A stretch of DNA of 64,000 nt from Anaerolineales bacterium (GTDB taxonomy: Bacteria > Chloroflexota > Anaerolineae > Anaerolineales > E44-bin32), in assembly GCA_037382465.1 (NCBI GenBank), contig JARRPX010000005.1:6224-70223 (forward strand). Reading direction: 5' to 3'. A program made the position numbers and the translations under genes. The notes below the pieces were generated by a model, which saw only the letters and a list, made by a program, of their open reading frames with translations, did no database searches and was not told where the DNA came from. Positions 24,455 to 33,970 of this stretch are shown one piece after another (position 1 is the stretch's first letter; each line of letters opens with the position of its first letter).

Positions 24455-24481
24455 GGTAACGTTACCCTGATAACGTTATCA
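24455..24481. promoter_or_regulatory. Two adjacent LacI-family operator palindromes upstream of the lacI-family gene
   Basis: ggtaacgttacc (24455..24466) and tgataacgttatca (24468..24481) are both perfect palindromes with the central CG typical of LacI/GalR operators. They lie 40 nt upstream of the regulator ATG, and a TTGACA occurs at 24424..24429. Confidence 0.6.
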
Positions 24482-24520: not shown

Positions 24521-25534
24521 ATGCCAACAGTTCTTGATGTAGCCAAGCGTGCAGGTGTCGCACCGATCACGGTTTCTCGGGTGATCAATAACTCGGGCTA
24601 TGTCAGCCAAGCTACTCGGGAGCGTGTCGAAGCAGCGGTCAAGGAGTTGGGATATGTTCCCAACACGCTGGCTCGCGGACTCCGCTCGAAACAGACGAAG
24701 ACTCTGGCGCTGGTCGTCACGGATATCACCAACCCATACTTTACTTTGATGGCCAGAGGGGTTGAGGACGCGGCGGGGATCTCCGACTATACGGTCGTTT
24801 ATTGCAATACGGATGAATCTGAAGCAAAGGAAGAAAAATATGCCAATCTATTGGCCCAGCGGCAGGTAGACGGCGTGCTATTGGTTCCTTCGTGTGGGAA
24901 TGTAAAGACGATCAAGTTCTTGCTCTCGAACGACATCAACGTTGTGGCGCTCGATCGCCGCGTTTCGGGCGTCAAAATCGATTGTGTACGCTCTGACTCG
25001 GAAAATGGCGCCTGTCGATTGATCGAGTTGCTCATCGGACTGGGGCACAAACGGATCGCTACAATTACCGGACCCAAAGATGTTTCAACTTCAGTCGACC
25101 GTGTAGCTGGCTATCGGCGAGCATTGGTCGAATCGAGCTTGGCGGAATACGAGCAAGTTCATTATGGGATGTTCAACCAGGAGAGTGGCTACAAATTCAC
25201 CAGGCAGGTGATGATGCATTCGCCAAAGCCGACGGCCATATTTGGTGCCAACAACTATATTGCGATTGGGATTATTAAAGCTTTGCGTGATCTCGAGTTC
25301 GATGTGCCTGGCGACGTCTCTGTTGTCGCATTTGATGATTTTCCCGAATCGATGCTCCTGGCGCCTTTTTTAACCATTGCTTATCAGCCAGCCTACGAGA
25401 TGGGGCAAATGGCGACTGAAATGTTGCTGAAACGTATTTCAGGTGAAATTACTGGAGAATGTCAAAACTTGGTATTGCCTACCGAAATCATCGAACGCGA
25501 ATCGGCTGGCCCAATCTGGAATAGAAGCAGGTGA
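24521..25534 (+). CDS. LacI-family transcriptional regulator
   Basis: MPTVLDVAKRAGVAPITVSRVINNSGYVSQATRERVEAAVKELGYVPNTLARGLRS is the canonical LacI HTH plus hinge. It is followed by a PBP type I sugar-binding core. Confidence 0.95.
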   Translation: MPTVLDVAKRAGVAPITVSRVINNSGYVSQATRERVEAAVKELGYVPNTLARGLRSKQTKTLALVVTDITNPYFTLMARGVEDAAGISDYTVVYCNTDESEAKEEKYANLLAQRQVDGVLLVPSCGNVKTIKFLLSNDINVVALDRRVSGVKIDCVRSDSENGACRLIELLIGLGHKRIATITGPKDVSTSVDRVAGYRRALVESSLAEYEQVHYGMFNQESGYKFTRQVMMHSPKPTAIFGANNYIAIGIIKALRDLEFDVPGDVSVVAFDDFPESMLLAPFLTIAYQPAYEMGQMATEMLLKRISGEITGECQNLVLPTEIIERESAGPIWNRSR

Positions 25535-25562: not shown

Positions 25563-25580
25563 TGTGGTAACGTTACCACA
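25563..25580. promoter_or_regulatory. LacI-family operator (18-bp perfect palindrome) upstream of the ABC importer genes
   Basis: tgtggtaacgttaccaca contains the same GGTAACGTTACC core as the site at 24455..24466. Confidence 0.6.
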
Positions 25581-25779
25581 TTGCTCTTCGATCTCGTAAT
25601 CTGGGAAGAGGCTAGGTGTTGATGGCGCAACAAAGCAGCGACAATTCCATCCCGGGGATTCCATTTTTACACTGCCGGCCCTTGTCAGTATTGAACGGTC
25701 AGCTTTCGTGTCGTTGGTGGAGTGATTCATTTCCTTGTCGGCAAGAGAGTTTTGTAGCTCGAAACTCAAGGAGATTGCG

Positions 25780-26574
25780 ATGAAACCCAAAACAGAAGCC
25801 ACGCCCATTGTGGAAATGCGGCATATCAAGAAGAGCTTCGCTGCCGTCCGGGCGCTGCGCGGCGTAGATCTGACACTGCACGAGAATGAGGTGTTGGGGT
25901 TGGTGGGCGACAACGCCGCGGGTAAATCCACATTGATGAAAGTTCTCAGTGGCGCCTACATCCCTGACGGTGGAGAAATCTTCATCGAAGGTAAGAAAGT
26001 GCATTTTAACAATCCGTTGGATGCGCGCCAAATGGGGATCGAGATGGTTTACCAGGATTTGGCCCTGGTCAACCACCTGAGTGTGGCAGCCAATGTTTTT
26101 CTTGGACGGGAAGAGATGTCCGTACAAATGGGTTTGTTTGGCGTGATCGACCAGCGTCATATAGAAGAAGAGACGCAGCGCCTGCTCGATCGTCTCAAGA
26201 TTGACATCTCCTCCGTACGCTTGGGTGTGGAACGACTTTCAGGTGGCCAGCGTCAAGCTGTGGCCATTGCCCGGGCGACGGCGTTCAACGCCAAGGTCAT
26301 CATCATGGATGAGCCTACGGCGGCTTTGAGTGTGGCGGCTATTGACAAGGTGCTCGATCTGGTGCGGGAGCTCAAGACGCAGGGTTGTTCGATCATCATC
26401 ATCAGCCACCGCCTGGAGGACATATATCGGGTGAGTGAGCGAATGGTGGTGCTGCGTCACGGGCGCAAAGTCTGCGATTATCCCGTCTCTGGTGACATTC
26501 ATGATTTCCGCGAGCGGGTGGTCGCTTACATCGTTGGCGCCCGAAATGATTTTCCCGAGGCAGAAGTTGATTGA
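25780..26574 (+). CDS. Sugar ABC transporter ATP-binding protein, single NBD (FrcA-like)
   Basis: AAGGAG RBS (25767..25772) 7 nt before ATG 25780; the ORF-track start at 25735 is probably too long. [26 protein letters not shown] and ISHRLED are all canonical. Confidence 0.92.
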
Positions 26575-26599
26575 TGCGCGTGAAGGAAAGGGTGCTTTC

Positions 26600-26803
26600 A
26601 TGATCTCCTCAAACGCGCTGGAGACGTTTGGCATGATGTATTGCTCTGCGGTTCTTCTCACGGGAGATCTAACGACGGTTCGCGGCCGTGTTGAAACGAC
26701 GCCGATTGAAGTACTCAATCCTGCCACCGGACCGGCCTCGTTAGTGAGAGTCGGCGTAGCGGCGACTGATAAAGGGCCAAACAAAAGGAAAGAGCAGCCA
26801 TGA
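26600..26803 (+). CDS. Possible 67-aa small ORF filling the ATPase-permease gap (hypothetical)
   Basis: ATG preceded by GAAGGAAAGGG. Its stop overlaps the permease start as ATGA (26800..26803). No recognisable motif, so this rests on position only. Confidence 0.25.
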   Translation: MISSNALETFGMMYCSAVLLTGDLTTVRGRVETTPIEVLNPATGPASLVRVGVAATDKGPNKRKEQP

Positions 26804-27810
26804 GCGAGATATTAACGGAACAAATTAGCAGGGATGATGCAGTTCGCGCCGGGGAGGCAGCCGTGAATCGCGGCTTGGCTGTGGACAGGTTCATTCGCTT
26901 ATTTGCAGTTGCTGTGTTGTTTACTATCTTCTCAATAACGGCCAGGAACTTCTTTACCGTCCGAAGCATTCTCACGCTTGCCTTGCAAACCAGCACGATC
27001 ACCCTCATGGGTATCGGTGTGACCTTCACGATCATCACGGGCGGTATCGATCTCTCTATCGGATCGATCGTTGCCCTGTCCGGCACCATCGCCGTGATGG
27101 TTGCCCTTGAAGGAGTCCCCATCTGGCTCAGCATGATCGTCGGGCTGCTTGTCGGAGTCGTGAGCGGTCTCATCAACGGACTGATGATCACCAAAATGAA
27201 GCTGCCTCCGTTCATCGCAACGCTCGGCATGATGATGGTTGCCAGAGGGGTTGCGCTTACGATTACGAATGCAAATGCAAAGCCGGCGCCTGAAGGGTTC
27301 GGTGAGTTGGGCAACGGCACCATTCTGGGGACCGGACCGGAATTCCCGGGTCTATCCTACCCGCTGTTGATCATGATCGCAGTGGCGTTCGTCTTTCATT
27401 TCATTCTCGCGAAAACGCGGCTCGGAAGGTACACCTACGCCGTGGGGTCGAACGAAGAGGCGGCACGGCTCGCCGGGATCAAGATCCATCAGGTTAAAAT
27501 CATCAATTACATTTTCTGCGGCCTGCTTACGGCATTGGTCGGCATCATCCTCGCCTCCCGCATGATCACATCCCAACCCAACAGCGCAATTGGCTACGAG
27601 ATGAACGCCATTGCTGCCGCCGTCATCGGCGGCACAAGCCTCATGGGTGGCGTAGGCACAGTAGCAGGGACGGTGATCGGTTCTTTCATCATCGGCATAT
27701 TAACCGTGGGACTCACGATGCAGGGTGCAAATTATTTCATGCAGCAGATCGTTATCGGGCTCGTGGTTATCGGCGCAGTAACAGTCGACCGACTCAGAAA
27801 CCGAAAGTGA
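26800..27810 (+). CDS. CUT2-type sugar ABC transporter permease
   Basis: [42 protein letters not shown] and [19 protein letters not shown] resemble RbsC/FrcC. Confidence 0.9.
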   Translation: MSEILTEQISRDDAVRAGEAAVNRGLAVDRFIRLFAVAVLFTIFSITARNFFTVRSILTLALQTSTITLMGIGVTFTIITGGIDLSIGSIVALSGTIAVMVALEGVPIWLSMIVGLLVGVVSGLINGLMITKMKLPPFIATLGMMMVARGVALTITNANAKPAPEGFGELGNGTILGTGPEFPGLSYPLLIMIAVAFVFHFILAKTRLGRYTYAVGSNEEAARLAGIKIHQVKIINYIFCGLLTALVGIILASRMITSQPNSAIGYEMNAIAAAVIGGTSLMGGVGTVAGTVIGSFIIGILTVGLTMQGANYFMQQIVIGLVVIGAVTVDRLRNRK

Positions 27811-27948
27811 GAGACGAAGGATCGCGATATCGGACTCCCCACTTTGTTCATGTCTCGAGAGGAGGTGCTCGCTTCATACTGATGAAAATTCGGCAACGCT
27901 ACTACGATCCGTTCTATGAACCGACTATTTCGAAGGAGAAGAGATAAT

Positions 27949-29010
27949 ATGAATAAGAAACTGTTCGCTCTAACAAGCCTTCTCATGGTCATTTCTCTCG
28001 CCTTGGCAAGCTGCGGCGCTCCGGCGACTGCGGAAGTCATCGAGAGAGAAGTTGAGGTGACGAAGATCGTCGAAGTAACCTCCGCCCCCGCTGCAGTGGT
28101 AGAAGAGGGTGGGGAGATTGCGGTCATCGTCAAGACGGGCAACTCCAGCTTCTGGCAGAATGTGCAGACTGGGGCAATGGACGCCCAGAACGAGCTTCAG
28201 GATAAGACTCCCAAGCTCTCGGTCACCTTCCTTGGAGCCCAGTCAGAGAGCAACATCAACGAGCAGATCAACATCGTCGAGAGCGCAATCGATCGCGGCG
28301 TGAAGGCGATCGTGCTTGCGCCCTCAGATACCCAGGCTCTCATCCCGGTGGTAGAGAAGGCAAAGGCTGCCGGCATTCCTGTGGTCATCATCGACTCGCT
28401 GCTCGAAGGCCCGGAAGATAACTACGTATCATTCCTTGCGACCGACAACTATGCAGCAGGAGAAGCTTGTGCCAAGAGGCTGATCGAGGAAGTAAAGGCC
28501 AACACGGGCGGCGATAGCGGCAATATTGCCGTTATGTCTTACGTTGCCGGCGTGGGCTCCGAGATTGGCCGCGTGGGTGGCTTCAAGGATTACATCGCGG
28601 CGAACTCGAATCTGGAGGTCGTCACGACTCAGTACTCCAACGCCGACATGCCCACCGCACTCGACCAGACGACGAATGTGCTGCAAGCAAACCCAGATCT
28701 GGTGGGTATCTTCGGCGCCAACGAGCCGACCGCCATTGGTATGGGCCGCGCGATCGAGCAAGCAGGCCTTGCAGGGACGATTGCCGCGATTGGCTTCGAT
28801 GGCAATAGTGTCCTGGCAGAAATGGTCAGAAACGACACGCTGCAGGCCATTGCCGTTCAAAGCTCCTATAACATGGGCTACTTGGGCGTCATGACTGCCT
28901 ATGCCGTTGCCTTTGAAGGCGAGACGGTTGACCACTATGTCGACACTGGCTTCATCATGGTCGACAAGGACAACATCGATTCTCAGGATGCTCAGAACGT
29001 GCTCTACTAG
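27949..29010 (+). CDS. Sugar ABC transporter substrate-binding lipoprotein (PBP type I)
   Basis: GAAGGAG RBS. MNKKLFALTSLLMVISLALASCG is a lipoprotein signal. IAVIVKTGNSSFWQNV, VKAIVLAP and IGFDG resemble RbsB. The ORF-track start at 27916 is probably too long. Confidence 0.88.
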   Translation: MNKKLFALTSLLMVISLALASCGAPATAEVIEREVEVTKIVEVTSAPAAVVEEGGEIAVIVKTGNSSFWQNVQTGAMDAQNELQDKTPKLSVTFLGAQSESNINEQINIVESAIDRGVKAIVLAPSDTQALIPVVEKAKAAGIPVVIIDSLLEGPEDNYVSFLATDNYAAGEACAKRLIEEVKANTGGDSGNIAVMSYVAGVGSEIGRVGGFKDYIAANSNLEVVTTQYSNADMPTALDQTTNVLQANPDLVGIFGANEPTAIGMGRAIEQAGLAGTIAAIGFDGNSVLAEMVRNDTLQAIAVQSSYNMGYLGVMTAYAVAFEGETVDHYVDTGFIMVDKDNIDSQDAQNVLY

Positions 29011-29345: not shown

Positions 29346-29819
29346 ATGTTGATTGGAATATCCCCTTTGATTTCTCCTGATTTACTGGCAGTCTTGTACC
29401 GCATGGGACATGGGGATGAAATCGTGCTCGCCGATGCGCACTTTCCAGGTGAGACTTGTGGTCAACGTGTGTTGCGCGCAGATGGTTTGAAGATCGCGGA
29501 TTTATTGGATGCAATCCTGCCCCTTTTTATTCTGGATACCTATGTCGAAAGCCCACTAATCATGATGGCGGTGGTTGCAGGCGATCAGGCAGATCCGGCC
29601 GTGGAGGTTTCATATCGGCTGATCATCGACAAATACTGGCCCAACACACCGCCTATTCAACGCATTGATCGTTTTGAGTTTTACGACAGGGCGAAACAAG
29701 CATTTGCCGTCCTCATGACCGGCGAGACGGCAAAATATGGCAACATCATTTTGAAGAAAGGAGTGACTCCCATTATTGATAATGAGGGAATATGGCCAAT
29801 AGGTGATAGTCATAAGTAA
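29346..29819 (+). CDS. fucU: L-fucose mutarotase (RbsD/FucU family)
   Basis: [34 protein letters not shown]...RADGL...[31 protein letters not shown] is colinear with E. coli FucU as I recall it (ISPLISPELL..MGHGDEI..DAHFP..KYGNILLKKGVTP). Confidence 0.9.
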
Positions 29820-30165
29820 GCTGTTTTAGAGGATAGGAACCAGCCGGGTATCCCCTTACAGATCATGGGTGGTCTGGCAGCGATGCGCCAGGCGCGTGGA
29901 AAGGAAGCGAAGTCGATTCCATGGCGATTGCACCTCACCCGCAGTTGCCAGCGTCGCGATCACAGATTAATTAAATGGAACACCGGAGGAATTGAGTAGG
30001 GGCCGGCGGCAGTGAGAAAGTTGTTGAAAATGGATGGTAATTTGACCAGGAAGGTTTCGAGAGTAATTGGAAGCAGACGCGCTGCCAACGCGAGACTTGT
30101 CGAAACAGCCACGTCTGGATATTGAAATGTAGTCCTGTTGTAGTAGTAGCACTTTACAAGGAGTC

Positions 30166-31221
30166 ATGATGAACAAAACCAAAAACAAAACAGCGCTCGA
30201 TGTTCTCGAGAAGGATGCTCTTATCGTCATAACCGGAGCCGGGGGGTTTATTGCCGGCGCGTTGACTCGCCATTTTCATGACCAGGGTTTTACGCGCATC
30301 CGGGCCATCGATCGAAAGCCGCTGCCGTACTGGTTTCAGAGGGTGCCCGGCGTGGAATGCCTCTCGATGGATTTGCGAGAAAAGCAAAATTGTATCCGCG
30401 CAGTGGAAGGCGCCGTCGAGGTTTTCAATCTGGCGGCGGACATGGGCGGGATGGGATTTATCGAGCATTTTCGCGTGGAATGTTTGCGCAGCATCCTGAT
30501 CAATACGCATCTCCTGGAGGCGGCTTATCGCGCAGGGGTGAATCGCTATTTCTTTTCCTCTTCGGCATGCGCCTACAACACGCAGCTGCAGCAGGATCCA
30601 CATGTGCGTGCACTAAAAGAATCCGATGCCTATCCGGCGATGGCGGAACGGGGCTATGGATGGGAAAAGTTGATGTCGGAGATGTTCTGCCAGGAATATA
30701 CGGCGGAGCGCGGCTTGAATACCGCCATCGCCCGCTTCCACAATGTGTATGGGCCTTTCGGAACGTGGGACGGTGGGCGCGAGAAAGCGCCGGCCGCCAT
30801 CTGCAGGAAGGTGATCGAGGCGAAGGAATCCGGGAAGAACGAGATCGTCATCTGGGGAGACGGGACGCAGACACGCAGTTTCATGTACATTGACGACTGT
30901 GTGGAGGGGATCGACATGATCATGCATTGCGACCGCCTGATCGCGACGCCGATCAATCTCGGCTCCAGCGAATTGCTCTCCATTAACGAGCTCGTAAGCC
31001 TGGCAGAGGAAATCGGCGGCGTCAAGCTGGAGCGCAAATATGACCTGGATGCGCCGCGCGGCGTGGCCGGACGTAATAGCGATAACACGTTTATAAAGGA
31101 AGTGTTAAACTGGGAACCCACCACGCCATTCCGTGAAGGTCTTCGTAAAACGTATGCCTGGATCGAGACGCAATTCCAAGACCGTAAAGCCGGCCGGCAT
31201 ACCGTCGAAGAAGTCTACTAG
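30166..31221 (+). CDS. GDP-mannose 3,5-epimerase-like NAD-dependent epimerase (SDR superfamily)
   Basis: ITGAGGFIAG Rossmann motif, SSACAY, YGWEKL (YxxxK) and the very characteristic RFHNVYGPFGTWDGGREKAPAAICRK block, which matches plant GME (RFHNIYGPFGTWKGGREKAPAAFCRK). Confidence 0.85.
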   Translation: MMNKTKNKTALDVLEKDALIVITGAGGFIAGALTRHFHDQGFTRIRAIDRKPLPYWFQRVPGVECLSMDLREKQNCIRAVEGAVEVFNLAADMGGMGFIEHFRVECLRSILINTHLLEAAYRAGVNRYFFSSSACAYNTQLQQDPHVRALKESDAYPAMAERGYGWEKLMSEMFCQEYTAERGLNTAIARFHNVYGPFGTWDGGREKAPAAICRKVIEAKESGKNEIVIWGDGTQTRSFMYIDDCVEGIDMIMHCDRLIATPINLGSSELLSINELVSLAEEIGGVKLERKYDLDAPRGVAGRNSDNTFIKEVLNWEPTTPFREGLRKTYAWIETQFQDRKAGRHTVEEVY

Positions 31222-31252
31222 GCCCTTTACCTTCTTACATCAGGAAAGTCAT

Positions 31253-32062
31253 ATGACTACATCACGGACGAATGAGAACACTGATGTCATCGGTAAAATC
31301 CCCTATCGAATGGCTTTCGCGGGAGGCTGGATCGATCAACCTTTCGTTTCGCAATTCAACCCGGAACCACCGGGGTCGATGGTTGTAGTATCGATAGAAC
31401 CTACTATTCGTTTCATGGATCGCTGTGGGATGGCGACCAGCACGCGCGAAGTGGCGAAGCGTCTGTGGAATGGTGTTATTCCCGATCGGGCTCCTGCGGA
31501 ATTGGTGCGTGAGCTGTATGCCGAGGAAAATAAGGACAAGCCGGAGCCATCCGGTTCGCAGGATATGGCGGGTTTGCTTTATCCTGGGATCAGCCGGCTG
31601 GATTATGACTTCGCCTACGAGGGAGGTATTTTTCCCGTTCACGTGGAATCGAACAACGATCCTGTTGTTGCAAGCTGGCTGGAAGATGTACTCCATCTGA
31701 TTCCGGTAGCCATGAGGTCGGCCCATTACAATCCGTTGGGTGTAAAGAATCTATCCCCCGAATGGATAGCCCGTTTGGGAAAGACCGGACGAGATTGCTT
31801 TGACGCGATCCTGGCACGCGATGTTATCGGGCTTGGCGCTTCGATGAATGAATGCATGCAATGCTGGGAGACCATTCTGCCGCATACCGTTACTCATCCT
31901 GAAATCACTGTTGATTTGAAATCTCTCTTGACACGCTACCAGACGCAATACGAGGGAGCGATGTATTCCGGATGCGGTGGCGGGTATCTGTACGTAGTAT
32001 CGGAAGAGAACATCCCCGGAACCTTAAAAGTCAAGATTCGGATTACGCCTCGAGATGAGTGA
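31253..32062 (+). CDS. Short GHMP-kinase-like protein (fucokinase/HddA-like), motifs divergent
   Basis: AGGAAAG RBS, with ATG 31253 just after the GME stop. RMAFAGGWIDQP (compare R.sLaGGGTD.P), GSQDMAGLLYPGI (compare GGWQDQ..GLYPG of fucokinase) and C-terminal SGCGGGYLYVV (compare GAGGGGF). Confidence 0.6.
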   Translation: MTTSRTNENTDVIGKIPYRMAFAGGWIDQPFVSQFNPEPPGSMVVVSIEPTIRFMDRCGMATSTREVAKRLWNGVIPDRAPAELVRELYAEENKDKPEPSGSQDMAGLLYPGISRLDYDFAYEGGIFPVHVESNNDPVVASWLEDVLHLIPVAMRSAHYNPLGVKNLSPEWIARLGKTGRDCFDAILARDVIGLGASMNECMQCWETILPHTVTHPEITVDLKSLLTRYQTQYEGAMYSGCGGGYLYVVSEENIPGTLKVKIRITPRDE

Positions 32063-32876
32063 AAAGACCGTCTTCGTTAGCGGCAGTTTTTTCGGCATGC
32101 AATCACCGGCTATCCGTTTTTTAGAGGAGGCAGCCAAGCTGGGGAGTGTCCACGTGCTGCTGTGGGTGGACGAACCCGACGAAGCTGTGCCCCGCGGATC
32201 GATGAAATTCACAGTAGAGGAGCGTCAATACCTACTGGCAAACAACCGTTATGTATCTTCCGTGACGATCGCGGAAGAAGACGAGGGACGGCTTGACCTT
32301 CCTCTGCAGAATGAGGTCCGGCCTGATATTTGGGCGGTGCGCGAGAAAGATGACCTGGAGCCTCGGCGTGCATTTTGCGATAGGCATGACATTCAATACA
32401 GCGTCATCAAGGACAGCGACTTGGCGGGATTTCCATATCTCCCAATACCACGCAAGCCTCCCGGGAGAAAGAAAGTTGTGGTCACCGGCTGCTTTGATTG
32501 GTTCCATTCCGGCCATGTTCGCTTTTTCGAGGAGGCGTCAGATTATGGAGATCTTTACGTGGTGGTCGGAAACGACAGCAATCTGCGTCTACTTAAAGGA
32601 AAGGAGCACCCTCTGTTTTCTCAGGAGGAGCGGCGCTACGTCGTGCAATCCGTTCGATTTGTCACGCAAGCCCTGATCTCCACCGGCGCGGGATGGATGG
32701 ACGCCGAGCCGGAGATCGAACGCATCCAGCCGGATATCTACATCGTCAACGAGGATGGGGATCAACCTGAGAAAAGAGAGTTTTGCAGGCAGCATGGATT
32801 GGAATACGTGGTCCTCAAGCGGGAGCCGAAACCCGGCTTACCTCGGCGGAGCAGCACGAATCTGAGGGGTTTCTAA
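32055..32876 (+). CDS. Tandem cytidylyltransferase-like (HxGH nucleotidyltransferase) protein; the N-terminal copy is degenerate
   Basis: C-terminal half: VVTGCFDWFHSGHVRFFEEASDYGDLYVVVGND...RRSSTNLR resembles TagD/RfaE-II. N-terminal half: VFVSGSFFGMQSPAIRFLEEAAKLGSVHVLLWVD aligns to it but lacks HxGH. The start overlaps the kinase stop (ATGAGTGA). Confidence 0.7.
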   Translation: MSEKTVFVSGSFFGMQSPAIRFLEEAAKLGSVHVLLWVDEPDEAVPRGSMKFTVEERQYLLANNRYVSSVTIAEEDEGRLDLPLQNEVRPDIWAVREKDDLEPRRAFCDRHDIQYSVIKDSDLAGFPYLPIPRKPPGRKKVVVTGCFDWFHSGHVRFFEEASDYGDLYVVVGNDSNLRLLKGKEHPLFSQEERRYVVQSVRFVTQALISTGAGWMDAEPEIERIQPDIYIVNEDGDQPEKREFCRQHGLEYVVLKREPKPGLPRRSSTNLRGF

Positions 32877-33970
32877 TGAGCAGGCAGAACGCCGGTGTGT
32901 TTTATGCAGTCATTATGGCGGGGGGGAGTGGGACGCGGCTGTGGCCGATGAGCCGCCGCAACCGTCCGAAGCAATCGTTGAAGCTGTTTGGAGAGAGGAC
33001 GCTTTTCCAGCAAGCGGTAGATCGCCTGCAGCCGTTGTTCTCTCCGGCTGAAATTTTGGTGGTTACCAAGTCGGACCTTGTCCCCTTGTTGCGGGATCAA
33101 TCCCCCGAATTGCCTGCCGAAAATTTCATCGTGGAACCGGAAGGCCGCGGGACGGCACCGGCTTTGGGTCTGGCAGCCATTCACCTGCAAAGGCGCGACC
33201 CGGAGGCGATAATGGCCGTGATGACCGCAGACCACTTCATCGCCGATGCAGCACCCTTTCGTAAGTTGCTGGCGGGCGCGCAAATCGCCGCGAGGTCCGA
33301 TTATTTGGTGACGTTTGGGATCATACCCACCTTCGCTTCCAGCGGATATGGTTACATCGAGAAAGGGGAAAGCCTCCCGCTTGAATCGGATCAGCCGGTT
33401 TTTCGAGTGCAGCGGTTCGTCGAAAAGCCGGACGTCGAAGATGCGGTTCGGATGGCGGCCAGTGGAAAATTCCTCTGGAACAGTGGGATGTTCACCTGGC
33501 GTGTGAAATGTTTGCTGGATGAATTACGTCGACAAATGCCGGATTTTTATACCCAACTTATGCAGGTCGAAGCCTCATTGCAAGATCCTGAGGAATATAC
33601 GACAGTCATCGGGCGAGTTTGGCCGCAAGTTGCTGAACAAACCATCGACTATGGCGTCATGGAAGGGGCGCGAAATGTGGCGGTGATTCCCACCCAGATC
33701 GGCTGGATCGATGTCGGAAGCTGGTCGAGTCTTTTCGAGTTGATGCCTTGCGATTCGCTGGGAAATGTGCTTGTCGGGCCTCATGAAACCATCAATACGC
33801 GTAACACGTTGGTGATGGGCAATGAGCGTCTGATCGCGACAATCGGGGTGGAAAACCTGGTGATTGTCGACACGGAAGATGCGCTGCTTGTTTGTTCGAG
33901 GGACGACGTGCAGGACGTGCGCCTCATCGTCAAAAATCTGAAGAGGGCCGGGCAAATCTCTTGGATTTAG
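32876..33970 (+). CDS. manC: Mannose-1-phosphate guanylyltransferase (GDP-mannose pyrophosphorylase)
   Basis: AVIMAGGSGTRLWPMSRRNRPKQ, FGIIPTFASSGYGYIE, RFVEKP, WNSGMF and DVGSW. The ATG at 32876 overlaps the previous stop (TAATG); the ORF-track start at 32783 is too long. Confidence 0.9.
   Translation: MSRQNAGVFYAVIMAGGSGTRLWPMSRRNRPKQSLKLFGERTLFQQAVDRLQPLFSPAEILVVTKSDLVPLLRDQSPELPAENFIVEPEGRGTAPALGLAAIHLQRRDPEAIMAVMTADHFIADAAPFRKLLAGAQIAARSDYLVTFGIIPTFASSGYGYIEKGESLPLESDQPVFRVQRFVEKPDVEDAVRMAASGKFLWNSGMFTWRVKCLLDELRRQMPDFYTQLMQVEASLQDPEEYTTVIGRVWPQVAEQTIDYGVMEGARNVAVIPTQIGWIDVGSWSSLFELMPCDSLGNVLVGPHETINTRNTLVMGNERLIATIGVENLVIVDTEDALLVCSRDDVQDVRLIVKNLKRAGQISWI

Follow-up and report, generated by a model that had tools for sequence, protein, structure and literature searches.

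Closest described pathways

Among the closest described systems, the Leloir pathway (GalM, GalK, GalT, GalE) combines a mutarotase, a GHMP-fold kinase for the anomeric position, a transferase that nucleotidylates the sugar-1-phosphate and an SDR epimerase for the nucleotide sugar with the release of a common hexose-1-phosphate under LacI-family control. The locus analysed here, situated in a 64,000-nucleotide stretch of DNA from an uncultured Anaerolineales bacterium (the window), resembles it in these respects. The nucleotide, however, would be GDP instead of UDP, the epimerase GME would invert C3 and C5 instead of C4, the transferase CT2 has an HxGH Rossmann-type tandem fold where GalT belongs to the HIT family, the kinase-like protein X is a strongly reduced GHMP form and the route would lead to mannose-1-phosphate instead of glucose-1-phosphate. 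Equally, Fkp performs anomeric phosphorylation of L-fuco/L-galacto-configured sugars followed by nucleotide activation, and shares with X the GHMP fold as well as the Arg/Trp/Asp and Gln/Asp residues for sugar contact and catalysis. On the other hand, its kinase part is longer (about 360 aa versus 269 aa, X lacking the adenine-contact segment), is joined to an NTP_transferase/beta-helix partner instead of an HxGH-fold partner and serves fucosylation, whereas the cassette adds GME and has a utilisation context.

The plant Smirnoff-Wheeler first steps (VTC1/ManC and GME) and the Methylacidiphilum GM35E (PMC6678494) possess identical GME catalytic residues and, as in the cassette, ManC and GME interconvert mannose-1-P, GDP-mannose and GDP-L-galactose, with the flux there directed to GDP-L-galactose to supply ascorbate, cell walls, LPS or antibiotics. 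The reaction of GME is reversible and its equilibrium disfavours GDP-L-Gal; the context of repressor, importer, glycosidases and kinase indicates the opposite direction in the cassette. Heptose modules (HldE; HddA with HddC) equally couple, often by fusion, a sugar kinase to a nucleotidyltransferase; the catalytic half of CT2 has its nearest counterpart in HldE domain II, and the structure of X is closest to those of the HddA/WcbL heptokinases. Those modules, however, use heptose phosphates to build LPS or capsule, and the HldE kinase is PfkB-type while HddC is NTP_transferase-type; a combination of GHMP and HxGH folds has, to our knowledge, not been described. Growth on L-galactose, the same purpose, is achieved by the oxidative catabolism encoded by the lgu genes of Luteolibacter (PMC12632266, where Bacteroides vulgatus is cited as well), in which L-galactose is converted to L-galactonate and D-tagaturonate and is neither phosphorylated nor nucleotide-activated. 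A Leloir-like GDP-sugar route to mannose phosphate was not found in the literature searched.

Organisation and control of the locus

The locus comprises the following features, with positions in the window:

24455..24480, no strand assigned: two adjacent LacI-type operators, GGTAACGTTACC at 24455 and GATAACGTTATC at 24469, upstream of the LacI gene
24521..25534, + strand: LacI-family repressor (PF00356 and periplasmic-binding-protein domains)
25566..25577, no strand assigned: third operator, GGTAACGTTACC, ahead of the gene for the ABC ATPase
25735..26574, + strand: CUT2-type ABC ATPase with a single nucleotide-binding domain (PF00005; start codon uncertain)
26800..27810, + strand: CUT2 ABC permease (PF02653; ribose/arabinose permease models)
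27916..29010, + strand: putative periplasmic sugar-binding protein (PF13407 at 199.9 bits)
29346..29819, + strand: FucU, L-fucose mutarotase family (NF011949, 194.5 bits)
30166..31221, + strand: GME, GDP-mannose 3,5-epimerase homologue (phmmer to solved plant GMEs)
31253..32062, + strand: X, reduced GHMP-fold, fucokinase-like putative L-hexose 1-kinase of 269 aa (AF2 model, profile comparison)
32055..32876, + strand: CT2, tandem cytidylyltransferase-fold protein (PF01467 at 49.6 bits)
32876..33970, + strand: ManC, a second, operon-specific copy of the mannose-1-phosphate guanylyltransferase type, lacking a PMI domain (PF00483 and PF22640; TIGR01479 at 336 bits)

The five genes from FucU to manC lie where a preliminary description, made from the sequence alone, had placed them, and the overlaps it had noted among the last three are both present, ATGAGTGA at 32055-32062 joining X to CT2 and TAATG at 32874-32878 joining CT2 to manC; 31 nt separate the gme stop from the X start. 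Its assignment of FucU downstream of a LacI-controlled CUT2 importer equally stands, with a score above the 141-bit cut-off of the NCBIfam L-fucose mutarotase equivalog and with repressor, ATPase, permease and binding protein upstream. The ATPase aligns only to the first half of RbsA/XylG-type models.

Perfect palindromes GGTAACGTTACC occur in the window at 24455 and 25566. In 1 Mb of related loci, the operator GGTAACG[T/G/A]TACC was found 19 times, where by our own estimate roughly 2 occurrences are expected by chance, and for all copies but one, the start of a LacI, ABC ATPase or gme gene follows within 260 nt. In seven relatives (L002-L006, L038, L070), the operator GGTAACGTTACC precedes gme by 25-54 nt; in this window, FucU and gme have no preceding operator. 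FucU is flanked by spacers of 335 nt to the binding-protein gene and 346 nt to gme, searches of which revealed neither an operator nor an Rfam element nor a convincing terminator. These spacers, the missing operators and the fact that only about one locus in ten has FucU beside the cassette would suit two units, with LacI, ABC system and FucU as an independent sugar uptake system and gme-X-CT2-manC as a separately controlled adjoining operon. We consider such a division very unlikely, as orthologues of the importer (67-84% identity) are cassette-linked, in differing arrangements, in at least nine Chloroflexota loci, and the closest relatives possess LacI-gme-X-CT2-manC-ABC-permease-SBP in one run of co-directional genes, gme being preceded by the shared operator. 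Specifically, ATPase orthologues (77-80% identity) are located 3' of manC in L002, L004, L005 and L006, while permease orthologues (76-79% identity) are linked in L002, L004, L006, L057, L072 and L080 and binding-protein orthologues (67-84% identity) in L002, L006, L033, L057, L072 and L080. LacI homologues (31-64% identity) reside inside 22 related loci, and an RbsD/FucU gene is the immediate cassette neighbour in 8 other loci.

The epimerase and the kinase-like protein

The recognition of a GME-type epimerase is borne out by phmmer matches to solved plant GDP-mannose 3,5-epimerases (E 2e-84 and 1e-82), by identity with plant GME in 23 of the 26 positions of the RFHNVYGPFGTWDGGREKAPAAICRK block and by the retention of all eight key plant residues in the alignment to AtGME, with S133, C135, Y164, K168, N193, K207, R237 and R303 corresponding to S143, C145, Y174, K178, N203, K217, R243 and R306. 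The high identity to the plant enzymes together with the conserved equivalent of the diphosphate-binding R243 and the GGREKAPAA block argues for a GDP-hexose substrate.

Searches of Pfam and NCBIfam gave no family match for X, which has the same length as database protein P0001. A GTG at 31133 was rejected as its start in favour of the ATG at 31253, which is preceded by AGGAAAG. The AF2 model (pLDDT 94.6) resembles WcbL (Z 22.7) and the fucokinase part of Fkp (Fkp-CTD, Z 20.7), and profile comparison connects X with Fkp (E 1.8e-14) and the HddA-type 3k85 (E 5.5e-9). Residues R592, W599, D601, Q761 and D762 of Fkp contact C2-C4 of beta-L-fucose-1-P or participate in catalysis, D762 being the base, and L-galactose is accepted as a substrate (PMC11982464). 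The aligned R19, W26, D28, Q103 and D104 of X are invariant among homologues down to 32% identity, while the position of Fkp T602 is occupied by an invariant Gln. The placement of X among the GHMP-fold proteins of the fucokinase/HddA branch is thus supported, in agreement with the fucokinase-like character initially attributed to it. Between its motifs I and II, however, X is shorter by roughly 70-90 residues; the missing segment holds the adenine contacts D644, M645, P666 and I669 in Fkp, which makes the use of ATP by X uncertain.

Conservation and gene neighbourhood

The conserved core of the cassette is gme-X-CT2, which occurs complete in 58 of 79 related loci, across seven phyla: gme is upstream of X in 59/71 related loci and CT2 downstream in 66/73 loci with room. 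Phylum labels cluster in the X tree. Only 25/79 loci have a ManC in the 3.5 kb downstream of X, and ManC has repeatedly been recruited to the same position from different ManC lineages (35-73% identity); in L011, a type I PMI is inserted between CT2 and manC. A census of the ORFs flanking the cassette most closely, two per side, retrieved LacI (about 20), GH29 (9), FucU (8), MFS (6) and AraC (4) besides ABC importers. As a counterpoint to L-galactose, the GH29 neighbours point first to L-fucose.

The preliminary description had proposed a different purpose, namely salvage by X and CT2 of imported L-fucose or L-galactose to an NDP-sugar in parallel with de novo synthesis of GDP-L-galactose or GDP-L-gulose by ManC and GME, both feeding glycosyltransferases elsewhere. 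Fkp-type salvage supplies surface glycans in Bacteroides, the genome contains Gmd and hence makes GDP-deoxyhexoses, GT2 and other glycosyltransferase-like domains occur in fusion with distant relatives of X, so that the module can serve biosynthesis, and the sole characterised bacterial GME adjoins a glycosyltransferase and was assigned to LPS synthesis (PMC6678494). Nevertheless, neither the glycan nor the parallel synthesis is upheld by the neighbourhoods, and we regard this proposal as rather unlikely: LacI/AraC regulators, importers, FucU, GH29 and other glycosidases dominate, no glycosyltransferase family is among the 25 commonest neighbour families of either census of the 79 loci, and flippase or polymerase families are equally absent from the common neighbours. 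Moreover, pure salvage would not need GME or ManC and de novo synthesis would not need X or CT2, yet the core unites gme with X and CT2. A second ManC (48% identity to the operon ManC) is encoded on another contig and a full-length L-fucose isomerase (FucI) elsewhere in the genome, so that neither L-fucose catabolism nor the housekeeping supply of GDP-mannose depends on this operon. These neighbours, the LacI operator directly before gme in relatives and the second ManC point instead to sugar-inducible assimilation with GME working towards GDP-mannose. Speaking against such assimilation, searches of the 95%-complete genome recognised neither GH29 nor a PMI (type I or PF01050 type).

A proposed Leloir-like route for L-galactose

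The locus is most naturally read as importing and activating an L-configured hexose. Our preferred interpretation, to which we give an even chance, is a Leloir-like assimilation in which L-galactose is converted via L-Gal-1-P, GDP-L-Gal and GDP-Man to Man-1-P. The CUT2 ABC system would import the sugar, FucU would equilibrate its anomers and X would phosphorylate it at C1, upon which CT2 would convert beta-L-Gal-1-P to GDP-L-galactose, either with GTP or via exchange with GDP-mannose. GME would then epimerise C3 and C5 to GDP-D-mannose in the thermodynamically favoured direction, and reverse ManC or the exchange reaction would release mannose-1-phosphate for central metabolism, with L-Gal + ATP giving Man-1-P + ADP as the net reaction and the LacI-family repressor controlling the system. 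The choice of sugar and nucleotide, the donor from which X would take its phosphoryl group, the flux direction and the co-regulation in this window are inferred. An L-galacto-configured hexose is the expected substrate with L-galactose, a minor sugar in nature in its free form, as the best fit. On chemical grounds, L-fucose would be a dead end, since 3,5-epimerisation of GDP-L-fucose leads to GDP-D-rhamnose with no obvious catabolic exit, whereas GDP-L-Gal yields GDP-Man. If true, such a route would be conserved across seven phyla.

The transferase leaves room for other chemistry. The N-terminal half of CT2 is degenerate, and HxGH is kept only in the C-terminal half, which carries FHSGH and an RRSSTNLR tail; motif conservation in 61 orthologues supports this description. 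The protein matches ethanolamine-phosphate cytidylyltransferase 3elb over two domains and rfaE_dom_II is the closest NCBIfam model; its nearest model is thus a heptose-1-P adenylyltransferase, whereas GME needs a GDP-sugar. The characterised HxGH transferases known to us use CTP or ATP, and a CDP-sugar instead of a GDP-sugar is a possible product. L-fucose, D-arabinose or L-gulose as the substrate, or a CDP- or ADP-sugar made by CT2, with a GME product other than GDP-mannose, would accord with the proximity of the catalytic half to ADP-heptose and CDP-glycerol enzymes, with FucU and GH29 as classic L-fucose markers, with the Gln in place of Fkp T602 and with a second, paralogous cassette in L048, which suggests several substrate specificities. 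We judge such alternatives unlikely in view of the plant-like GME with its conserved diphosphate-binding arginine, the repeated recruitment of ManC, the missing exit from epimerised GDP-L-fucose and the complete FucI elsewhere in the genome.

The pairing of a kinase-like protein with an HxGH nucleotidyltransferase, first noted from adjacency, recurs in distant relatives as fusions of the X and CT domains. As had been anticipated from the fold of the Fkp pyrophosphorylase half, X and CT2 are not orthologues of Fkp. L048 contains a CT::X fusion that matches the NCBIfam Fkp model, and in one distant fusion an N-terminal L-rhamnose mutarotase domain is followed by the transferase and then the kinase in a single chain.

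Organization of the locus

From the LacI gene to a gene for a hybrid histidine kinase, the ORF listing and the family scans delineate a single co-directional block on the + strand of the window.

Genes of the co-directional block in the window
24521-25534, +, LacI-family repressor
25735-26574, +, CUT2-type ABC ATPase
26800-27810, +, ABC permease
27916-29010, +, sugar-binding protein
29346-29819, +, FucU (NF011949 equivalog)
30166-31221, +, homologue of GDP-mannose 3,5-epimerase (GME; gene gme), matching plant GME
31253-32062 (start ATG 31253), +, X, putative L-hexose 1-kinase, matched by no family model
32055-32876, +, CT2, with two cytidylyltransferase-fold halves
32876-33970, +, ManC (PF00483 and PF22640)
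after ManC, +, hybrid histidine kinase

The gene overlaps quoted in the preliminary description are present, ATGAGTGA at 32055-32062 and TAATG at 32874-32878, and its near-canonical FucU is borne out by 194.5 bits to NF011949 (cut-off 141) versus only 37 bits to the D-ribose pyranase model. Translation of X starts at ATG 31253, located 31 nt past the gme stop with AGGAAAG in front, to give a protein of 269 aa, equal in length to the identical database protein P0001. GTG 31133, which would overlap gme by 89 nt, was rejected as start in favour of ATG 31253 with its ribosome-binding site and the length of the database protein. ManC is composed of the NTP_transferase (PF00483, 153.5 bits) and ManC beta-helix (PF22640, 65.5 bits) domains and reaches 336 bits against TIGR01479, under the cut-off of 373; as this match covers model positions 2-350 of 467, ManC is devoid of the phosphomannose isomerase (PMI) half.

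Within 25735-26803, the ABC ATPase possesses one nucleotide-binding domain of about 270 aa where a tandem of about 500 aa is usual, with a gap of 225 nt between the ATPase and permease genes. Since single-domain orthologues with 77-80% identity occur in the related loci L002, L004, L005 and L006, the single-domain form is not an assembly error, while remoter relatives in L057, L064, L070, L072 and L080 have the normal two-domain form. The closest public record, L001, is 99% identical and belongs to a MAG labelled Anaerolineales.

The epimerase

The GME homologue aligns over residues 19-343 with solved structures of plant GDP-mannose 3,5-epimerases (E 2e-84 and 1e-82), with GDP-fucose synthase as the runner-up family at E 5.6e-25. 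Residues essential in GM35E have been named as S143, C145, Y174, K178, N203, K217, R243 and R306 of the Arabidopsis enzyme (PMC8787198). Upon mapping by alignment to the Arabidopsis structure chain (index offset 2), the Ser/Tyr/Lys triad of C4 oxidation-reduction (S143, Y174, K178) is found as S133, Y164 and K168 of the window protein, the Cys-Lys acid/base pair (C145, K217) as C135 and K207, N203 and R306 as N193 and R303, and the diphosphate-binding R243 as R237. Thus, the earlier call of a bacterial GME holds for every essential residue as well as for overall similarity, and the window epimerase is, judged from its sequence, an extended SDR of the GM35E type with predicted activity. The GME reaction is reversible, with an equilibrium unfavourable towards GDP-L-galactose.

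Protein X as a reduced GHMP-fold protein

No Pfam, NCBIfam or phmmer-versus-PDB match was obtained for X, with PF00288 and PF08544 silent even at E 10, and PF08544 is reached by distant relatives only (P0253, 29.1 bits). Fold and homology become visible through profiles and structure, not through direct sequence searches. More than 7,700 database relatives are found at E <= 0.001, most of them 65-87% identical and, in the exhaustive search, down to about 30% identity; every source name seen among them is 'hypothetical protein', and the protein atlas clusters are equally unnamed. A profile of stand-alone X proteins matches Fkp, the bifunctional fucokinase/GDP-fucose pyrophosphorylase of Bacteroides, at E 1.8e-14 and an HddA-type kinase at 5.5e-9. 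The AlphaFold (AF2) model from a 60-sequence alignment (pLDDT 94.6; a shallow 24-sequence model with pLDDT 55 was discarded) displays the two-domain GHMP fold (Foldseek E 2.8e-8), with similarity to the heptokinase WcbL (VIA Z 22.7, rmsd 2.9 over 239 residues), to the C-terminal domain of Fkp with beta-L-fucose-1-phosphate (Z 20.7, rmsd 2.6 over 226, with 21% the highest identity) and to galactokinases (Z about 19-19.8).

Sugar-contacting and catalytic residues of Fkp, which also phosphorylates L-galactose and D-arabinose, are R592, W599, D601, T602, Q761 and D762 (PMC11982464). HMMER aligns PYRMAFAGGWIDQP, the GHMP motif I of X, with PVRIDMAGGWTDTP of Fkp, and GSQDM with GWQDQ. Five of these six residues are kept in X as R19, W26, D28, Q103 and D104, invariant across the whole family, with T602 replaced by Q29, a position that is strictly Gln among cassette-linked members and either Gln or His in the family at large. 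Motif III reads SGCGGGY. The phosphate loop, motif II, is present in altered form, as G59-M-A-T-S-T-R65 aligns with SGLGTSS of the heptokinase-type structure 3k85; a reading of X as devoid of motif II was rejected, with EPSGSQDM representing the catalytic GWQDQ motif and not a degenerate motif II.

X bridges the motif I strand and motif II with about 10 residues versus 72 in 3k85 (39-110), and the corresponding stretch of Fkp, 621-711, comprises about 90. Five residues of Fkp are named as contacting adenine, four of which, D644, M645, P666 and I669 (PMC11982464), lie in the stretch absent from X; this makes the phosphoryl donor of X, or the manner in which X binds it, uncertain. As modelled, X is a reduced, new subfamily of the GHMP fold rather than a canonical kinase; it stands outside the FKP family, yet probably works like the kinase half of Fkp.

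The tandem transferase CT2

CT2 matches PF01467 with 49.6 bits (cut-off 21) and consists of two cytidylyltransferase-fold halves, as in ethanolamine-phosphate cytidylyltransferase. Of the two halves, the C-terminal one alone retains VTGC.DW.HSGH.RFFEE and the R.S..LRGF tail among 61 orthologues, with FHSGH and RRSSTNLR (RTxGISTT-like) kept at 90% or above, while the N-terminal half retains G.FD and shows HxGH in none of the 61. All equivalog models remain far under their cut-offs, the nearest curated model being the heptose-1-phosphate adenylyltransferase domain of HldE (rfaE_dom_II, 70 bits versus a cut-off of 181.5). Distant relatives of X carry one or two CT domains fused at their N-terminus. 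The conserved and fused partner of X is an HxGH cytidylyltransferase-fold domain and the Fkp-style NTP_transferase/beta-helix partner is absent, so that the pair is not orthologous to Fkp, as initially proposed.

Conservation and genomic neighbourhood

A pattern scan with one genome per species recovered at least 564 candidate stretches in species-representative genomes confirmed to carry X, and the best 80 of these at least 564 served for the locus counts, the window's own record being left out (n=79). These 80 loci derive from Chloroflexota, Acidobacteriota, Planctomycetota, Latescibacterota, Verrucomicrobiota, Lentisphaerota and Spirochaetota; all are MAGs, and as the sampled database clusters have MAG or metagenome names only, no cultured carrier was found in either set. 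CT2 lies immediately 3' of X in 66 of the 73 loci with room for it and gme immediately 5' in 59 of 71, with gme, X and CT2 together in 58/79 loci. A ManC gene follows within 3.5 kb downstream in 25/79 loci, some adjacent ManC lineages being only 35-42% identical to the one of the window, and in L011 a type I phosphomannose isomerase is encoded between CT2 and manC. In the closest relatives, the gene order is LacI-gme-X-CT2-manC-ABC-permease-SBP, where SBP is the sugar-binding protein; at least nine Chloroflexota loci have the cassette linked to orthologues of the window's importer (67-84% identity). That the LacI/ABC/FucU genes and the gme-X-CT2-manC operon are merely adjacent, the explanation ranked last, is considered improbable.

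The phylum labels require 8 changes when placed on a quick maximum-likelihood tree built for X, with a minimum of 6 and a shuffled mean of 42, which argues for inheritance mostly within phyla with a few transfers. Recent promiscuous transfer as the source of the 65-70% identity between phyla gained no support from the same comparison.

In a Pfam census of the two ORFs closest to the cassette on either flank (218 ORFs), LacI (about 20), GH29 alpha-L-fucosidase (9), RbsD/FucU (8), MFS (6) and AraC (4) were encountered, along with ABC components, GH43 and GH42. No glycosyltransferase family is among the 25 commonest families of either neighbour set. Individual loci have additional genes. A gene of the 3-keto-disaccharide-hydrolase family (PF06439) is located directly after CT2 in three Acidobacteriota loci (L008:5444-6313, L015:9901-10737), an aldo-keto reductase gene after manC in L030, and an extra SDR epimerase/dehydratase-family gene after the cassette in L010 and L019, with an ORF of similar length at the same position in L036.

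Regulation

The 12-mer GGTAACGTTACC is found in front of the LacI and the ABC ATPase genes of the window. With one mismatch allowed, it occurs 19 times in 1 Mb of fetched loci, with about 2 occurrences expected by chance on our own estimate, and in 18 of the 19 cases a LacI, ABC ATPase or gene for gme starts no more than 260 nt downstream of it. In L002, L003, L004, L005, L006, L038 and L070 it resides 25-54 nt before the gme start, which makes the epimerase operon a direct member of the regulon in those relatives. In the window, neither the spacer between the sugar-binding protein gene and FucU (335 nt) nor the one between FucU and gme (346 nt) contains a convincing operator, palindrome, Rfam element or terminator. 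Control here must proceed by read-through or else is relaxed, the weakest link for this locus. At 30033-30046, about 120 nt upstream of gme, TGGTAATTTGACCA has the outer half-sites of the relatives' TGGTAACGGTACCA with the central CG lost and may represent a decayed operator.

A proposed Leloir-like route for L-galactose

The four operon genes are exactly the set that a closed Leloir-like cycle needs. In such a cycle, X would convert L-galactose to beta-L-galactose-1-phosphate, from which CT2 would form GDP-L-galactose to be epimerized by GME to GDP-mannose in the favoured direction; mannose-1-phosphate would then be released by ManC running in reverse or by CT2 through a GalT-like exchange, with recycling of GTP and pyrophosphate. 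FucU would provide the kinase with the anomer that it needs, once the sugar has been imported or set free by retaining GH29 enzymes. Were CT2 GalT-like, the gme-X-CT2 trio would be self-sufficient, with ManC only priming the cycle. The resemblance to the Leloir pathway is one of logic and not of membership, as the cassette has no HIT-family GalT and its epimerase is of the GME type and not a C4-epimerizing GalE. Equally, the cassette would work similarly to Fkp salvage without being a member, differing in transferase fold, reduced kinase and 3,5-epimerase.

Assimilation of L-galactose is the reading to which we assign roughly an even chance. The more comprehensive proposal, a GDP-linked Leloir-type L-galactose assimilation in at least seven phyla by a reduced GHMP kinase without the canonical adenine pocket and a half-dead tandem HxGH transferase, perhaps GalT-like in swapping GMP between GDP-mannose and L-galactose-1-phosphate, is held more tentatively, at somewhat below even. 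The main uncertainties of this reading lie in the nucleotide of an HxGH enzyme, in the phosphoryl donor of a GHMP protein devoid of the usual adenine pocket and in the scarcity of free L-galactose.

The preliminary description had proposed uptake, salvage and de novo synthesis of an L-hexose for a glycan, and the single characterized bacterial GME, from Methylacidiphilum, is encoded beside a glycosyltransferase and has been assigned to LPS synthesis (PMC6678494). This model ranks second and is regarded as rather unlikely: a pure salvage route could dispense with GME and ManC and a de novo route with X and CT2, which favours L-galactose assimilation.

Ranked third, and judged slightly less probable than synthesis for a glycan, is the same architecture operating on another sugar or with another nucleotide. 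Known HxGH nucleotidyltransferases use CTP or ATP, and the proposed route demands GTP of CT2. L-fucose fits the pocket of X as well as L-galactose. L-galactose is nevertheless favoured, because GDP-L-fucose would be epimerized to GDP-D-rhamnose, a dead end with no evident exit, and for L-fucose a complete L-fucose isomerase (FucI; 598 aa, all three domains) is encoded on another contig of the assembly (G000; 3.73 Mb, 95% complete). The FucI gene (L081:9642-11438, contig C36) has GH53, GH4 and GT87-like neighbours and no adjoining fuculokinase or aldolase genes. Searches of the assembly detected neither GH29 nor a PMI, be it type I or PF01050-type; in a 95%-complete bin this does not prove absence. 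Two ManC genes (the second 48% identical) and a Gmd are nevertheless encoded.

Bacterial L-galactose catabolism as described so far in the literature found is oxidative (PMC12632266), and a GDP-linked catabolic route is absent from the full-text literature searched, in which subscription journals are thinly covered. If true, L-galactose assimilation by the cassette would be a new bacterial way of channelling an L-hexose from the glycans of plants and algae to central metabolism, and bacterial GME would have a catabolic function, the opposite of that in plants. Assigning a function to X would improve the annotation of many soil, peat and sediment genomes of Chloroflexota, Acidobacteriota, Planctomycetota, Verrucomicrobiota and Latescibacterota. 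Mechanistic interest lies in a GHMP kinase that dispenses with the usual adenine pocket and in an HxGH enzyme that may work with guanine nucleotides, and the cassette enzymes could provide a short biocatalytic route from L-galactose to GDP-L-galactose or GDP-mannose and back.

Related modules

Fusions within the wider X family (P0198, P0253, P0204, P0218, P0166) combine L-rhamnose mutarotase-CT-X, phosphorylase-superfamily (PNP_UDP_1)-CT-X, GT2-X and other glycosyltransferase-like domains with X. The kinase/transferase module appears to be a sugar-activation unit of general use, not described so far, that serves several sugars and ends. In L048 (3412-9653), two tandem cassettes are placed behind one LacI gene, a CT::X fusion with a GME paralogue directly followed by the canonical gme-X-CT2. 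The fusion protein of 385 aa hits the NCBIfam model for Fkp with an E-value of 3.6e-17, and the paralogue (330 aa, 43% identical) keeps the Cys and the GGREKAPAAICRK block. The tandem arrangement hints at sister modules that serve a second sugar.
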